A DNA stretch of 29,240 nucleotides from the UHGV virus genome UHGV-0275034; one strand, written 5' to 3'. This document shows positions 14,906 through 24,746 of this stretch, piece after piece. A program made the position numbers and the translations under genes. Below the pieces are notes generated by a model. It was given only the letters and a program-made list of their open reading frames with translations, was not told the origin of the DNA and ran no database searches. Position 1 is the first letter of the stretch. Each line of letters starts with the position of its first letter. This DNA comes from a virus.

Positions 14906-16324
14906 ATGCCGATTCAGCAACTTCCGCTTATGAAAGGTGTCGGCAAAGACTTTCGAAACGCCGACTATATCGACTATCTGCCAGTGAATATGTTGGCTAC
15001 ACCCAAAGAAATCCTGAGCAGCAGCGGATATCTTCGCTCATTCCCGGGCATTGCCAAACGCTCTGATGTAAACGGTGTATCGCGCGGCGTCGAGTACAAC
15101 ATGGCGCAGAGTGCTGTTTATCGCGTGTGTGGTGGCAAGCTGTACAAAGGAGAAAATGCAGTCGGTGATGTTGCCGGAAGTGGTCGCGTATCAATGGCAC
15201 ATGGTCGGACATCTCAGGCTGTAGGCGTTAATGGTCAACTGGTCGAGTATCGCTATGATGGCACGGTTAAAACCGTCTCAAACTGGCCTGCAGACAGCGG
15301 ATTCACTCAGTATGAGTTAGGTTCGGTTCGCGACATTACGCGCTTGCGTGGGCGTTATGCGTGGTCAAAAGACGGCACCGATTCATGGTTTATCACTGAC
15401 CTTGAAGACGAATCGCATCCTGACCGATACAGCGCACAATATCGTGCCGAGTCTCAGCCTGACGGCATCATTGGCATCGGAACATGGCGAGACTTCATCG
15501 TCTGTTTTGGTTCATCGACGATTGAGTATTTTTCCCTGACTGGTGCAACCACCGTTGGTGCCGCTTTGTATGTCGCACAGCCATCGCTGATGGTGCAGAA
15601 AGGTATTGCCGGAACCTATTGCAAAACGCCATTCGCTGATTCCTATGCGTTCATCAGCAATCCGGCAACAGGTGCTCCGTCTGTGTATATCATCGGCTCC
15701 GGTCAGGTATCACCAATCGCCAGCGCGAGCATTGAGAAAATACTACGCTCCTACACTGCTGATGAACTTGCTGATGGCGTGATGGAATCGCTGCGATTTG
15801 ATGCGCATGAACTGCTGATTATCCACCTTCCGCGCCACGTCCTCGTGTACGACGCATCTTCAAGCGCCAATGGTCCGCAATGGTGTGTACTGAAAACAGG
15901 CTTGTATGACGATGTGTACCGCGCTATCGACTTCATTTACGAAGGCAATCAGATAACGTGCGGCGATAAGCTGGAATCGGTGACCGGGAAATTGCAATTC
16001 GATATCAGCAGCCAGTACGACAAGCAACAGGAACATCTGCTGTTTACTCCTCTGTTCAAAGCGGATAACGCCAGAGTGTTCGATCTTGAGGTTGAATCGT
16101 CAACTGGCGTTGCGCAGTACGCCGACCGCCTGTTCCTCTCTGCAACCACTGACGGCATAAATTACGGACGTGAGCAGATGATTGAACAGAATGAACCGTT
16201 CGTTTACGACAAACGTGTTTTGTGGAAGCGAGTCGGGCGCATCAGGAAAAATGTTGGCTTCAAATTGCGCGTTATCACGAAGTCACCTGTCACTCTGTCA
16301 GGCTGCCAGATAAGGATCGAGTAA
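14906..16324 (+). CDS. Tail hub protein (P22 gp10 homologue)
   Basis: 472-aa product, the same length as P22 gp10, in the gp4-gp10-gp26 order. Confidence 0.8.
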
Positions 16325-17277
16325 TGGCTGATTCTAATCTCAATGAGCCGGTAATCATCCAGGCTACACGGCTAGACACATCAGTCCTTCCACGCAATAT
16401 CTTCTCGCAGTCATATCTGCTGTACGTTATCGCACAGGGTACTGATGTTGGTAACGTGGCGAACAAGGCCAACGAAGCAGGGAAGGGGGCTTATGATGCA
16501 CAGGTGAAGAATGATGAGCAGGATGTCACCCTTGCAGACCATGAATCCAGAATTGAAGCTGCTGAAGCAACTCTCATCAATCATGAACATAGAATCGCAG
16601 CAGCGGAAAGCACTCTTGCAGATCATGAAACAAGGATTACGGCTGCTGAAACAGAGCTGGCTGATCACGAGACGCGAATTGCTGCCAATGAATCTGAGTT
16701 AGCAAACCATGATGCGCGCATAACTCAGAATACAACCGATATCGACGCACTTGATACCAGGCTCACAGCGGCAGAAGGAAGTATTTCGACGCTACAGAGC
16801 ACAGTTGGTGATCACTCAACAAGAATATCTGCGCTTGAGTATGCCACCACGCGCAAGAAATCAGAGGTTGTTTACTCAGGAGTATCTGTAACCATCCCGA
16901 CAGCGCCGACTAACCTTGTTAGCCTGCTGAAAACGCTCACGCCGTCATCCGGCACGTTGTCACCATTCTTCGACACCGTTAACAACAAGATGGTTGTGTT
17001 CAACGAGAGCAAAACCTTGTTCTTCAAGCTGTCGATTGTCGGGACGTGGCCCAGCGGAACCACCAACAGGTCAATGCAGCTAACCTTTTCCGGCTCTGTT
17101 CCTGACACGTTGGTCAGCAGTCGTAATGCGGCGACAACAACCGACAACATCCTGTTAGCTACGTTCTTCAGTGTGGATAAAGACGGCTTTCTTGCCACAA
17201 ATGGCAGCACGTTAACCATTCAGTCAAATGGTGCGGCGTTTACTGCCACAACCATCAAAATCATTGCGGAGCAGTGA
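16324..17277 (+). CDS. Tail needle (P22 gp26 homologue) with repeat-rich coiled coil and extended C-terminal domain
   Basis: Start at ATG 16324 ([18 protein letters not shown]..., overlapping the gp10 stop as TAATG) matches the P22 gp26 N-terminus; the ORF-track start at 16222 lies inside gp10. Confidence 0.85.
16531..16740 (+). repeat. Five tandem 42-nt (14-aa) imperfect repeats inside the tail-needle gene
   Basis: Peptide units [14 protein letters not shown] / [14 protein letters not shown] / [14 protein letters not shown] / [14 protein letters not shown] / [14 protein letters not shown] read directly from the translation. Confidence 0.8.
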
Positions 17278-17744
17278 TGGAAATAAAGCTCATCGATAAT
17301 CCGGTGAAGCTTGCAGAATTCCTCAACAACCCGGCAAACACGGGAAATATCGTAGACAGTGGAGACAAATACTACATCAAGCCTGATGCGGTATATCTCG
17401 GCATCTACGAAGGATTAGTGCTGGCTGGAGTTCATGAAGTGCGTAACTTCTGGCATAGCGTTGTTGAATGCCATGCGGTGTATGACCCCGGATTCCGTGG
17501 AGAATATGCACTGCAAGGGCATCGATTATTCTGCAAATGGCTTCTCGAAAACTCACCATTCCTTAACAGCATCACCATGGTTCCTGACACCACCAAATAC
17601 GGACGGGCAATTATCCGTTTGCTTGGCGCTACCCGTGTTGGTCACCTTGATGATGCGTACATGAGTAACGGAAAACCGGTTGGAATCACCCTCTATCAAT
17701 TACCTCGTTCGAAATATGAGGAGCTATTAAATGTTAGTACTTAG
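17277..17744 (+). CDS. Protein at the P22 gp14 position (155 aa), function unassigned
   Basis: ATG 17277 overlaps the needle stop; gene order corresponds to gene 14 of P22-like phages; I cannot confirm homology from the sequence alone. Confidence 0.5.
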   Translation: MEIKLIDNPVKLAEFLNNPANTGNIVDSGDKYYIKPDAVYLGIYEGLVLAGVHEVRNFWHSVVECHAVYDPGFRGEYALQGHRLFCKWLLENSPFLNSITMVPDTTKYGRAIIRLLGATRVGHLDDAYMSNGKPVGITLYQLPRSKYEELLNVST

Positions 17745-18402: not shown

Positions 18403-19875
18403 TTGGCTACATGGCAACAGGCTGGTAATTCAGGCGCGCTTCTTGCCGGGTTAGGCGGCATGAACTCCAACGCTCCAAGAGCAAGTGATGCAGACGCCAC
18501 GCTTGCATACATTCGACAGAATAACGAGATGGAGCGTTCAGGACGTAATAACGTTGGCTTGCAGGCTTTGCAGGGCATTTCATCTGTCATGGATATGTAT
18601 AAGCAGATGGATCAGCAGAAGCGACAGCAAGAGTTTCAGCAGGCTTATGCTGATGCATATACATCTGGTGACCGCGATGCAATGCGAAAACTGGCATCAC
18701 AGTATCCTGAGCAGTTTGACGCTGTAAGAAACGGCATGAAATTTGTCGATGAAGACCAGCGTTCCACTGTCGGCACACTGGCAGCAAGTGCCAGACTGGC
18801 AGCTTCATCTCCAGAAGCCATGATGTCATGGTTGCAGAACAACTCATCTGAGCTTACTCGTGCCGGAGTAGACCCTCTGGATGTGGCGAAAATGTATCAG
18901 CAAAATCCACAAGGTTTCACAGAGTTTGTTGATCACCTTGGAATGGCTGCTCTTGGTCCGATTGATTACTTCAATGTTCAGGACAAGATGGCTGGTCGTG
19001 AAATTGACCGAGGAAGGCTGGCAGAGACAATCCGCAGCAATCAGGCTGGAGAGGCGCTTCAGGCGAGAGGGCAGGATATTAGCCGAGCAAATGCGTTAAC
19101 GTCAGCATATGCACCAACAGCTGCAATGCAGAATTATAATCAGTACGCGCAAATGTTAAAGGCGGATCCCGATGGTGCAGCGGCATTTGCGGCAGCGGCG
19201 GGAATTAATCCCAATGCTAAGAAATTACTTAAGGTTGAAACCAATCCTGATGGCTCGGTAACTAAGTATTACACCGATGGCAGCGAGGAAGCCGGAAAAC
19301 TAAACCAACCTATATCTGGTGATGGCATTAAACCAATTAGCTTGCCACAAGCGCAAAGCATCATAGATAAGGCTAATGAGGGTTCCAAGAAGGCGGCAGG
19401 ATTTGCTTTGCGATTAAAAGATTCAATGGACTCAATGAATCAGCTTAGTAAAAGCATTGACCCTAAGCGAGTTGCATTAATAAATCGCTCTCTTGGTGAT
19501 GGGACTATTGCAAATTTAAGCCTATCACCAGCGGAGCAGCAATATATGGTAAATGCGAGAGACGCCTTGTATGCAATTTTGCGCCCAGAAACAGGTGCAG
19601 CAATTACTCTGCCAGAGATGCAGGAGTATTCCAAAATGTACCTGCCTCAGCCCGGTGATTCCAAGGCTGCTACTGAAACAAAAATGCGAAAAATGCAGGG
19701 CCAATATAACTCATTACGTGGTCAGTCTGGTCGCGTTTATGATGCTTTGGTGGTTTCAAGTGCTGCAAATAGTCAACAACAGAGCAATAGCCAACAACCG
19801 GCAAATACCCAACAGCAGCAGAGTCAATCCGGATCATATACCTCAAAATCAGGCATTCAATTTACGGTGGAATGA
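18403..19875 (+). CDS. Ejection protein, P22 gp20 homologue
   Basis: 490-aa product in the gp7-gp20-gp16 order; the start may be an alternative codon a few nt upstream, closer to GGAGGTG at 18381. Confidence 0.7.
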
Positions 19876-21719
19876 TGAAAGTAACTGCAAACGGTAAGAC
19901 ATTTACCTTCCCTGATGGTACGAGCACGGAAGATATTGGCACCGCCATTGATGAGTATTTTGCTGGTCAGGCTGTTCAGCAACAAACAGTTAATCAGGCC
20001 AATAATGAACCAGCACGTGAAGAACCATCATTGATGCAACAAGCTGGCGATTGGCTCACAGGTGCTCAAAGTGCAGGGCAAATTGCAGAACAGGCTGGTC
20101 GTGGTCTGGTAAACATACCATTTGACGTATTGCAGGGTGGCGCAAGTCTGATTAATGCAATCAGCCAGGGGCTTGGTGGCCCCAAGGTTTTGGATGATGT
20201 TTATCGCCCTGTCGATCGACCGACAGACCCTTATGCGCAAGCTGGAGAAACAATTGGCGGGTATTTAGTTCCAGGAGTTGGAACGGCAGGAAGCATGGCT
20301 ATTGGATCACTGGCAGAAGCCGCAAACCAGAAAGGTGATTTCGCGCAAAATGCAGCCATAAATGCCGGAGTTAACCTTGCCGCTCAGGGTGTTCTTTCCG
20401 CAGCAGCAAAGGGAATAGGGCGTGGAATAACGGCTATAAAAGGCGATATCGCGCCAGAAGTAGCGAAAAAAATTGCCACCTCAGAATCAATGGGTGTGAC
20501 GCCAATGACATCTGATGTCATCCCACCGAAAAATGCTTTCACTCGTGGCCTTACTCAGGATGCCGAGGGGGCTTTGCTCGGGACAGGCTCAAAGCGAGCT
20601 GAGCAATATGCAACGCGTAGTAAGCTGGTAAGTAATTATTTTGACCGTTTTGGTGAGTACAACCCTGATGATGTGGTGAAATCTCTGACCACCACGTTAA
20701 GGGGGCGGAAGGATGCCGCTGGCGCTGTTATCAATGACGTCACCAATAAAATGGGTAATGCCTCAGTTGATACCACAAATACCATGAATGCTCTGAATAC
20801 AGCGATCGCAAGACAGGAACGGCTTGGGACATCTGCCAATCAAAGCCTGCTTACATCCTTGCGTAACCTACGTGAAGAATTAGCAAACCCTGCAACTGAT
20901 TTGGATGTTACGTTTGATCTCTTGCGTCAGCACAGAACAGCATTTAGATCTAATGTTCAGGGAGATGCTATGGTCTTCCCCAACCAGGCAAAAGCAGCTA
21001 CCAATATGGTAGAGAATGCAATGTCAAAAGACCTTCGTAACGCAGTTGCTAAAAACCTCGGTGCATCAGACGCAGCAAAATACCTTAAAGCAAATTCCGA
21101 TTATGCAAACGTTTATAATAAGGTGCTTAATAAAAACATTGCTAACAAGCTCAACAAGGCAAGCAGTGAAGCCAGTCCTGAACTTATAAATACCGTTGTA
21201 TTAAGCAGAAAACCATCTGACGTGAAACGAATCTGGAGCGCATTGGATGATAAAGGGAAAGATGCTATGCGTGCAGCTTACGTCAGCAAAATAGCGGAAA
21301 AATCCGGTGACTCTCCAGCCAAGTTCATCACTGAAGTTAATAAGCTGAAATCTCAGTCAGGCGGTGAAATTTACAACACTATTTTTTCTGGAAAGCACAT
21401 GAAAGAGCTTGATGCTCTTCATGAAGTTCTACAGCAAACAGCAAGGTCAGACACCGCAAATGTAGTAACTCAGACGGGGCAATCGCAAGCCAACAGGATA
21501 AGGACGATTGGCGCAACTGCGACTCTTGGCGTATCAATGGGGCTTGAGGCTGGTTTCGGTGCAATGATGCGCTTGTATGAGTCCAAAGCAGCAAGGAATG
21601 CTCTCTTACGTTTGGCAAACACCAAAGCAGGAACGCCAGCCTATGAAAGAGCGCTAAATAATGCTGCAAATGCGATACGCCCTATACTTTCAAGCCAAAT
21701 TACAGCAGAACAGCAATAA
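19872..21719 (+). CDS. Ejection protein, P22 gp16 homologue
   Basis: 615-aa product, close to the roughly 609 aa I recall for P22 gp16; start overlaps the gp20 stop (ATGA). Confidence 0.75.
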
Positions 21720-21733
21720 AAGATAAGATATAA

Positions 21734-22219
21734 CTACCTGATATTACTGCTACTGTTGCATGTTACCGTGTTTCCAAATCCTGAATTGCAGTTTGTATAT
21801 GTGTCAACGCGTGTTGGGTAAGGTTGAGTTATAACAGGCTGGCGCGCTTTTTGCTCGATCGCTTGCATTGTGTTTACAGCCTGATAATTCAATAAAGCCT
21901 GCTGGAATGCTTGGCTTTGCGCTATTTGTTGGGCTTGTTCTTGGCTTTGTAATTGAACATAAAGATTCTGAAGTTCAAGTCTTGCCTGTGTGTCACTTAT
22001 CTTGCCTTCATCGACACCTTGCCCGAGCATCTTCGCAGCAAGGACATACAGCTTAGGTGTTGGTGCTGATGCCATGCGAGAGTCGTTCTTCAAGCTGGCA
22101 TCAAGGCAATTAGCCATATCGCTAAGCTTTGGATAGCGTTGCTCGCAACTTGCCTGATAGTCGCTTACTTTTGCGCACCCAGCCAGCAGAAGCGGGATAA
22201 TTAACAGTGATTTTTTCAT
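21734..22219 (-). CDS. Predicted lipoprotein (162 aa) with Gln-rich central region
   Basis: Start set at the internal ATG (complement of 22217..22219), which has AGGAGA about 10 nt upstream; signal peptide plus lipobox MKKSLLIIPLLLAGC; convergent with gp16. Confidence 0.7.
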   Translation of the reverse strand: MKKSLLIIPLLLAGCAKVSDYQASCEQRYPKLSDMANCLDASLKNDSRMASAPTPKLYVLAAKMLGQGVDEGKISDTQARLELQNLYVQLQSQEQAQQIAQSQAFQQALLNYQAVNTMQAIEQKARQPVITQPYPTRVDTYTNCNSGFGNTVTCNSSSNIR

Positions 22220-22253
22220 ATAATTAACTCTCCTTAGTTTTGCGCAGGATACC

Positions 22254-22619
22254 ATGAAAAAAGTTAACATTGGAAACGTACCAAAGATGCTAGTACCGCT
22301 CTTTGAGAGCGGTACAATTGTGTTTTGTAGAGACTTTCCAGAATGGCAACGCCTGCATCAAAAACTTGGCGTTGACGTGCATGACTCGGACGCCAACGGA
22401 GCGTCTCATACAATGAGTAGCGAGAATGGTGTTTTGCATGTGATAGGCGTGTTCAATGGCAAACTATCTACTATTGCCCATGAGTGCGCTCACATGGCAT
22501 TCGATATCTGCTCAAGGGTCGGTGTTGATGTTGAACCAGGAAGAGCCAACGAGACTTACTGCTACTTAATGAGCAGGCTTGTTGAGTTCTGCGAGCGACA
22601 TATCAAAAAGCCGGAGTGA
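22254..22619 (+). CDS. Small protein (121 aa) carrying an HExxH motif (HECAH)
   Basis: ATG 22254 with AGGA upstream; divergent from the lipoprotein gene with only 34 bp between the two start codons; motif IAHECAHMAF suggests a zinc metallopeptidase-like fold. Confidence 0.55.
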   Translation: MKKVNIGNVPKMLVPLFESGTIVFCRDFPEWQRLHQKLGVDVHDSDANGASHTMSSENGVLHVIGVFNGKLSTIAHECAHMAFDICSRVGVDVEPGRANETYCYLMSRLVEFCERHIKKPE

Positions 22620-23309: not shown

Positions 23310-24746
23310 ATGACAGACATTACAGCCAATGTTGTAGTCAGCATGCCTTCGCAACTCTTCACTATGGCTCGTTCTTTTAAAGCCGTAGCTAATGGAAAGA
23401 TTTATATCGGTAAAATTGACACTGACCCAGTAAATCCTGAAAACCAGATTCAGGTTTATGTAGAGAACGAAGACGGCTCTCATGTTCCCGTTTCGCAACC
23501 AATCATCATTAACGCCGCTGGTTACCCTGTATATAACGGACAGATTGCCAAATTCGTAACTGAGCAAGGCCATTCTATGGCTGTTTATGATGCGTATGGT
23601 GCACAGCAGTTCAAATTCCCAAATGTGCTGAAGTATGACCCGGATCAGTTAAGAGTAGTTTTGACTGGACAGTCTGGTGATGGACTTAAGAATTTTTATG
23701 CTGGCTCAGGATGGACTGGTTCAGATGCAGCTGGTGACAATATTTATAACAATGAAACTATCATATATAAAAATGCTACACGACAGAGATTCTCCATACC
23801 AGAAACACCAATTCCAGATCCCATTATTTGGCTGGAAAAAATTAGTTCTGCAACTAGGGATGACGGCATCAAACGATGGGATCAGGGGGTAATTTATAAC
23901 TCTTTGCGCAAGGTGTCAGGAAGTGCATATACATGCACAACTACAAGTGTTGCTAAGCATGAGGGAGGGAATGGGCATTCAATTGGTCACCACATGCGTG
24001 GAGAATCAAGAAATCCGCAAGCCGAAACATGGGGGGGGTGGTCATATGGTGCAGTATTAGGAGATGCAGTGCAGAATGGAGCGATTAGCACTATTGCACA
24101 TGAATTTAATCTGAATAATCGAGGTCCCGATAAAGGATGGATGGAGAATGCACTGCAAGGATCTGTAAGAGGGTTGGTATGTGTAACTCAGGATAAAAGC
24201 AATCCAGTAACACAGATGATTACCATCGGAAGAGGGAGTGAAGCTCCAAATGGTTATATCTGGACAGGAATGTTGTTTAGAGGTAATTCTATTTCCACTC
24301 CAACAGAGGAACTAACCGAGGTAGGTAATGGCGAATACATCAGACTTGAGGGATCTCTATCATCTGGAGCTGCAAACGGCATTAGATTTAGAACAAATTA
24401 TTTTAGGAGTGGAATTTCATTTTCTGAAGCTAGATTTTCAAACAACTGCGCAATTTTGATGGGCGACAATCAACGAATTACGGTAGGAACGGGCCCGGCA
24501 AATACAACACATTTGAGTTTCAACAGGGCTGAGAACTGGGCTAACTTCAACAACTTAAGAATACGACTTAATGGCAATCAAGTTATTTCAGAGAGGAGGA
24601 CGGGATGGGGATCGCCAACCGGCACCGTATCCCGAGCAGCATTTAACTCTGGAACAATAACTCACGAAGATTTAGCAAAGGTAGTTGCAGCATTAATTCA
24701 GGACTTACATGCTTCAACCGGGCATGGATTAATTGGTTTAACTTAA
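23310..24746 (+). CDS. Tailspike / receptor-binding protein (P22 gp9-like N-terminal head-binding domain, divergent short distal domain)
   Basis: First roughly 115 aa closely parallel the P22 gp9 N-terminus ([11 protein letters not shown] ... [13 protein letters not shown][13 protein letters not shown] ... LKYDPDQ); the remainder is unrelated and AT-richer; total 478 aa. Confidence 0.8.

Follow-up and report, generated by a model that had tools for sequence, protein, structure and literature searches.

An HS1-type tail needle with a repeat-built shaft in a P22-like Escherichia coli prophage

The virus genome UHGV-0275034, of which a stretch of 29,240 nucleotides was analysed (the window; all positions refer to it), carries a gene for a phage tail needle whose shaft is made of tandem 14-residue repeats. 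This raises the question of whether the needle differs in its architecture from those already known, what its tip does, and whether the repeats are a device by which the length of the protein is changed. The needle itself is an already known one, belonging to a published, structurally characterised and common type with homologues for which solved structures and published genetics are available. In the following, we describe the gene and its three domains, the state of the repeats in this allele, the variation of repeat number among relatives, and the explanations that compete for the repeats and for the tip.

Identity and genomic setting of the needle gene

The needle gene is located on the plus strand at 16324..17277 and is an intact open reading frame of 317 codons followed by TGA. 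Its product matches PF16532 (Sf6-type phage tail needle knob) over the entire profile (positions 1-175 of 175) at 351.2 bits (cut-off 27; E = 1.1e-105), and it also matches phrog_1030 ("tail needle knob", E = 9e-135) and phrog_1219 ("tail needle protein", E = 3e-59). The closest characterised relative is the needle of prophage HS1 from E. coli HS (EcHS_A0316; WP_000785558; gene retrieved from NC_009800, 320115-321068), to which the window protein is identical at 307 of 317 positions (97%) in an ungapped alignment. The HS1 needle was described as a 317-residue protein with an Sf6-like N-terminal domain and 16 heptads, compared to 11 in Sf6 and P22 (Leavitt et al. 2013; PMC3741392). The two proteins agree in length, in their 16 heptads and five repeats, in the contact residues of the knob and in the neighbouring genes, and they differ by ten substitutions (window residue first: E8V, K54Q, K62R, D100E, A107D, T138A, S213A, S228N, T247A, and A269S) as well as in the tailspike and in the allele type of the downstream gp14-like gene (about 67% nucleotide identity). 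No evidence contradicting the identification as tail needle was found, and we regard it as nearly certain that the gene encodes a trimeric tail needle of the HS1 subtype of Sf6-type needles and belongs to a P22-like (Lederbergvirus-type, Sf6/HK620-related) E. coli prophage.

This type of needle is widespread. The exact protein sequence is present in public databases on at least 76 contigs, where it is deposited as "tail needle knob protein", its 90%-identity cluster comprises 1430 member sequences, and the complete E. coli genomes with an ungapped 954-nt allele, 2.5-4% apart in sequence, number at least 60. A needle-knob sequence of some kind was present in 884 of 5426 complete genomes. A reading of the window made from the sequence only, to which we refer as the sequence-only reading, had considered the architecture distinctive; with HS1, the large cluster and the complete genomes at hand, homologues of equal length and with the same knob turn out to be the norm.

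The gene is embedded between those for gp10 and gp14, with an overlap of a single base on each side. Upstream, the gene of a gp10-like tail hub of 472 residues (14906..16324, plus strand; PF11134, E = 6.5e-299) ends with a TAA codon (16322-16324) whose last base is the first of the needle start codon (ATG, 16324-16326). This TAATG overlap (16322..16326, plus strand) suggests translational coupling of the tail hub gene and the needle gene, and the one-base overlap of hub and needle genes is likewise present in the related loci L001-L005 and L009-L014. Downstream, the last base of the needle stop codon (17275-17277) doubles as the first base of the start codon (ATG) of a gp14-like DUF2824 gene (17277-17744, plus strand; DUF2824, E = 2.5e-65; PF11039). 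The resulting TGATG site (17275..17279, plus strand) is at the same time a mosaic boundary, downstream of which the identity among the loci is bimodal (67-71% vs. 92-98%). Around the needle, the P22-type virion module is complete: it comprises the coat protein (PF11651), gp4 (PF11650), gp10, the needle and the gp14-like protein, and furthermore gp7, gp20, a gp16-like DNA transfer protein and a tailspike with a P22 head-binding domain, followed by an integrase. The top DNA matches of the window are the Escherichia phages Gally, HK620, and N7 and the Shigella phage Sf6, in mosaic pieces of 94-97% identity. Two open reading frames on the reverse strand (16411..16668 and 16872..17219) and an internal one on the plus strand (16511..16702) gave no PHROG match, and between 15800 and 17800 there were no promoter-like sites and a single terminator-like site, which is fewer than expected; nothing points to a second feature inside the needle gene on either strand.

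Plug, shaft and knob

The N-terminal virion-binding or plug domain comprises residues 1-62 (16324..16509, plus strand). Residues 3-64 match residues 1-62 of P22 gp26 in PDB 8EAP chain B (E = 1.5e-27), and residues 1-139 match the gp26 structures 2POH and 3C9I (E about 1e-42), which bears out the earlier statement that the N-terminus resembles P22 gp26. The invariant columns of two homologue alignments (A1 and A2) lie mostly within residues 1-62. For the needle of Sf6, gp9, the role of this domain as a plug was described by in situ cryo-electron microscopy (PMC9728967). By analogy with the P22 and Sf6 structures, residues 1-62 of the window protein would form a helical hairpin that plugs the channel of the gp10 tail hub and holds the packaged DNA in, the needle presumably being assembled into the virion in the same manner.

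The plug domain is followed by an NxxQD motif (N63-D64-E65-Q66-D67; 16510..16524, plus strand) in the register known from P22 gp26, in which this motif forms a Ca2+-coordinating layer of the polar core with the asparagine at position a and the glutamine at position d (PMC13580157). N63, E65, Q66, and D67 are invariant in alignment A2. The motif fixes the heptad register of the shaft, and a heptad listing starting from N63 gives 16 uninterrupted heptads covering residues 63-174 (16510..16845, plus strand), which is also the number published for HS1. Position a is occupied by leucine, isoleucine or valine, and position d by histidine (six times), alanine, asparagine (twice) or leucine. The AlphaFold2 model of the monomer contains a single helix from residue 42 to 175, with pLDDT values of 93-98 over residues 61-160, and then a beta-rich domain. 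Heptad listing and model together predict that the shaft is a continuous three-stranded coiled coil.

Towards the end of the shaft, the similarity to P22 ends. At 317 residues the protein is longer than wild-type gp26 (233 residues), as the sequence-only reading had stated, and it shares with gp26 the N-terminal plug domain, the Ca2+ layer of the NxxQD motif, the LADHE-type first heptads and, by analogy, the role of a channel plug and membrane-contacting needle. However, in gp26 the 11 heptads give way to a triple beta-helix and a tip made of an inverted coiled coil, whereas the window protein carries a knob. The P22-type C-terminal tip is absent from the window protein, with no similarity to gp26 past about residue 160, which places it in the Sf6/knob branch of the gp26 family and not in the P22-tip branch; the P22-type needle of ST104 shows an overall identity of 44%.

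The knob comprises residues 174-317 (16843..17274, plus strand) and by homology should form a trimer with a TNF-like jellyroll fold. Over residues 165-317, the protein shows about 97% identity to the crystal structures 4K6B (HS1 knob, E = 2e-88) and 3RWN (Sf6 knob, E = 2e-87), and it is this identity from which the fold was assigned. In the AlphaFold2 monomer, the confidence for the knob is moderate (mean pLDDT 74.5), and the best Foldseek matches of the model, whose knob has pLDDT values of only 40-87, are again 3RWN and 4K6B (E about 1e-17, target-normalised TM-score 0.62). The HS1 knob, solved at 1.1 Å (4K6B), binds three L-glutamates, and its glutamate and phosphate contacts were described (PMC3741392). 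All six glutamate contacts (E181, K235, S283, D285, L290, and K312) and the phosphate triad S266-R267-N268 are present in the window protein at HS1 numbering, the six glutamate contacts being invariant among 29 homologues. The knob of the window protein would thus be expected to hold three L-glutamates between its subunits. That the tip is of the knob type rather than the P22 type is confirmed by the PF16532 match, but the extra length from which the knob had been deduced has another origin. Sf6 gp9, with 282 residues, has nearly identical plug and knob domains and the same gene order, and the 35 additional residues of the window protein all belong to the shaft (five heptads, seen as alignment gaps of 28 and 7), which has only 11 heptads in Sf6. 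The shafts of HS1 and Sf6 are only about 67% identical (PMC3741392).

Repeats and shaft length

Five units of 14 residues (42 nt), designated A to E, occupy residues 70-139 (16531..16740, plus strand) and were delimited by the 14-residue register and by self-match statistics. Unit A comprises residues 70-83 (nucleotides 16531-16572), unit B residues 84-97 (starting at 16573), unit C residues 98-111 (starting at 16615), unit D residues 112-125 (starting at 16657), and unit E residues 126-139 (from 16699 to 16740). The consensus is L-A-(D/N)-H-E-x-R-I-x-A-A-E-x-x, and since one unit equals two heptads, units A-E account for 10 of the 16 heptads of the shaft. They are followed in heptad phase by two degenerate units, F and G (residues 140-167; 16741..16824, plus strand).

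Tandem Repeats Finder did not report an array in the window allele, even at a minimum score of 30, and the periodicity was therefore shown by self-match statistics instead. At an offset of 14 residues, the shaft contains 43 amino-acid self-matches compared to 9.3 ± 2.9 in 5000 shuffles, none of which equalled 43 (z = 11.8); at an offset of 28 residues, z is 10.1, and at the DNA level z is 7.9 for an offset of 42 nt when codon shuffles serve as the reference. The five imperfect 42-nt tandem repeats noticed in the sequence-only reading are thereby confirmed. In their DNA, pairs of units are 45-74% identical, the longest exact word that any two units have in common has 9 nt, and a repeat search picks up the A/C pair only (spacing 84 nt, 79% identity over 43 nt). 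Adjacent units show no excess of shared synonymous codons at offset 14, the same codon being used at 14 of 37 positions compared to 12.4 ± 2.7 by chance. A recent origin of the window's own repeats, which had been considered, was dropped on the basis of this negative codon test. The repeats of the window allele are ancient duplications which are kept alike mainly at the protein level by the constraints of the coiled coil.

Comparison of repeat number among related prophages, as had been suggested, revealed that it does change, the proteins ranging from 254 to 345 residues by whole heptads. Among the best 120 homologues, needle lengths of 254, 268, 282, 289, 296, 303, 310, 317, 331, 338, and 345 residues were found, with shafts of 47, 61, 75, 82, 89, 96, 103, 110, 124, 131, and 138 residues; an additional entry of 324 residues has a shaft of 110 residues like the 317-residue form. 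The phase of the window shaft modulo 7 is kept in 110 of 114 homologues, counts that are not phylogenetically independent. Lengths change in steps of one heptad and not of one 14-mer, and there are deletions of 35 residues and of 49 residues. By our own count, natural knob needles have about 7 to 20 heptads, which goes beyond the published range of 11-16.

The junctions of the variants lie at in-register homologies of 6-17 nt. In the 303-residue form, units D and E are fused in register at CGCGAAT; in the 289-residue form, units A and C are fused at CATGAA, which lies inside CTTGCAGA(C/T)CATGAA; and in the 268-residue form, unit D is fused at TGATCAC to unit G, whose GDHSTRI motif would have served as recombination partner, with the loss of 49 residues. 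Duplications are found as well. The 345-residue form carries units A and B in a second, perfect 84-nt copy, and the 331-residue form has the same duplication, with copies identical at 83 of 84 positions, on the background of the 303-residue form. In the Sf6 lineage, an 84-nt unit is absent from the 254-residue form and is present once, twice, and three times in the forms of 282, 310, and 338 residues, respectively; in the 338-residue allele, two of the copies agree at 84 of 84 positions. Two CATGAAACGCG(A/C)ATCG motifs 84 nt apart would have given rise here both to the deletion (254 residues) and to the extra copies (310 and 338 residues). E. coli prophages contain deletion as well as duplication products of one and the same misaligned repeat pairs, and the 254-residue and 338-residue forms both reside within apparently complete virion gene sets. 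Among six loci compared, whose flanking DNA differs by 3-6%, there was no near-identical prophage pair differing solely in repeat number.

From the junction sequences of six variants, we infer that rare unequal recombination, or misalignment, at short homologies lying in register accounts better for the differences in length. In this model, the periodic coding sequence would supply the homologies (CATGAA, TGATCAC, CGCGAAT, and CATGAAACGCG(A/C)ATCG), an occasional unequal exchange or misalignment at such sites would delete or duplicate whole heptads, and the need for an in-phase coiled coil would filter the products. The number of repeats does change within the family, albeit probably rarely. 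A structural parallel is provided by PDB 4LIN (300-residue chain), which we take to be an engineered, elongated gp26 fibre constructed in the laboratory. It consists of gp26 with an internally duplicated helical core, can be aligned with the shaft of the window protein in either of two registers, and differs from that protein by its P22-type tip; the duplicated core indicates that extension of the shaft by whole repeats is structurally tolerated. One may go further and regard shaft length as an adaptively tuned, recurrently changing trait, altered by in-phase unequal recombination at DHETRI-coding homologies and selected to match the reach of the needle to the thickness of O-antigen or capsule or to the timing of DNA release, a proposal that we consider rather unlikely. 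The natural heptad series represents a ready-made set for testing needle length against adsorption or DNA-delivery kinetics.

Origin of the repeats and role of the tip

Two other accounts of the repeats have to be weighed against ancient duplication followed by rare in-register recombination. The sequence-only reading had pointed out that tandem repeats allow length changes by slippage, and in its strongest form this would make the window repeats an active slippage or contingency tract that switches needle length at high frequency. Repeat number indeed varies among relatives which are otherwise more than 90% identical, and some of them carry the perfect or near-perfect 84-nt tandem duplications described above, so that the part of the claim concerning changes of length stands. 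The window units themselves, however, are too diverged for classical slippage: their low DNA identity, the short longest common word, the silence of Tandem Repeats Finder and the chance-level use of the same codons in neighbouring units all argue against such a tract, as does the stability of the ungapped 954-nt form across the complete genomes mentioned above. A high-frequency switch therefore appears highly improbable, and on the same four properties of the units a hypermutable contingency locus with near-identical DNA units arranged head to tail was rejected. The lack of an excess of shared synonymous codons is, on the other hand, what would be expected if the units had never been copied from each other and the 14-residue periodicity had arisen by convergence, dictated by the demands of a trimeric coiled coil with a polar core. 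The alternation of histidine and alanine at position d fits this explanation, and periodicity of the protein can by itself account for periodicity of the DNA. Nevertheless, the likeness of the units (L-A-D-H-E-x-R-I-x-A-A-E) also includes positions b, c, e, f, and g on the surface, which are not dictated by packing, the DNA of units A and C shows 74-79% identity, and relatives show fresh duplications of exactly these units, which means that duplication operates in the needle gene. Convergence is accordingly judged unlikely, and duplication of units, with subsequent divergence of their DNA, remains the preferred origin.

For the tip, a role in host range or in DNA delivery had been proposed. 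According to the mechanism deduced from P22 and Sf6, the needle would project past the tailspikes and be the first part of the virion to touch the outer membrane at infection, and its release would open the channel and allow the ejection proteins and the DNA to leave. A distal position of this kind, together with a TNF-like fold resembling that of the fibre knobs of adenovirus and PRD1 (PMC3741392), could speak for a receptor-binding domain that sets the host range, and knob homologues are found at the C-termini of proteins from many unrelated phages. Yet P22 infects Salmonella normally when it is equipped with the knob of Sf6 or HS1, and mutants of the glutamate site are functional (PMC3741392). 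Furthermore, the identical 317-residue needle occurs together with tailspikes of 478, 748, and 881 residues, whose bodies are unrelated, and with head modules of both the Sf6 type and the P22 type, and the sequence of the knob hardly varies from host to host. We consequently consider a determination of host range by the knob very unlikely. The other half of the proposal fared better, as changes of the tip were shown to slow the release of K+, that is, the delivery of DNA (PMC3741392). By analogy with these published chimeras, the knob of the window protein may modulate the rate of DNA delivery and not host specificity (PMC3741392).

Apart from the function of the tip, the partners of the needle were considered. 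The idea that needle type and tailspike type are coupled was rejected on the available sample, in which one needle is combined with three different tailspikes and with two types of head module. The association of a single needle sequence with tailspikes of these three lengths also counts against a tight coupling of needle length and tailspike.

Heptad phase and core polarity of the needle shaft

The coiled-coil core of the needle shaft is unusually polar between residues 70 and 174 (window 16531..16845): position d is occupied by histidine in six heptads (H73, 87, 101, 115, 129, and 164) and by asparagine in two (N122 and N136). Four needle homologues possess shafts whose lengths lie outside the heptad phase, namely 78, 91, 102, and 109 residues (P0053, P0051, P0056, and P0008). 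These were mostly found on one contig each, P0056 on two, and they could represent either tolerated stutters or stammers or errors of assembly or sequencing.

Flanks of the needle gene

In some prophages, a gene resembling NUMOD4 or HNH endonucleases is located between gp10 and the needle gene, as in the E. coli T2 locus (L015:1963-2508; NZ_CP114792.1) and in the matches H132, H137, and H143. It overlaps the needle start by 8 nt and looks like a homing-endonuclease insertion. At the opposite end, a mosaic joint is situated exactly at the needle stop and the start of the gp14-like gene (window 17275..17744; L001-L006). Among the window and these six prophage loci, needle and gp10 show a between-locus identity of 94-97%, whereas the 900 nt 3' of the needle occur as two allele types, with between-locus identities of 67-71% versus 92-98%.

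Needle remnants and distribution of knob-type needles

Many complete E. coli genomes, O157:H7 strains among them, have retained only nucleotides 507-954 of the needle gene, adjoining a DUF2824 gene (matches H91-H101). This segment together with the DUF2824 gene is probably the small P22-like remnant mentioned by Leavitt et al. 2013 (PMC3741392). In 2013, phages of Escherichia and Shigella were the sole reported sources of the knob-type needle; such needles are also present in Klebsiella aerogenes, Serratia, and one Klebsiella phage (phiKp_30, H8), and the four protein matches (P0062, P0066, P0070, and P0102) comprise 316-317 aa.

Tailspike and DNA transfer genes

The tailspike gene (window 23310..24746, + strand), which is shared by the prophage loci L011 and L012, encodes only 478 aa. 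Matches in Pfam, PDB, and PHROGs are confined to residues 1 to ~125, corresponding to the P22 head-binding domain, and no sequence match to the receptor-binding body of ~350 residues was obtained in these three databases. The gp16-like DNA transfer protein (window 19872..21719, + strand) matches phrog_770, but had no match in the Pfam search, and is composed of 615 aa in the window compared with 665-707 aa in loci having an identical needle. It is followed by a conserved gene of unknown function on the reverse strand (window 21737..22270, phrog_6067), an arrangement also found in L009-L014.
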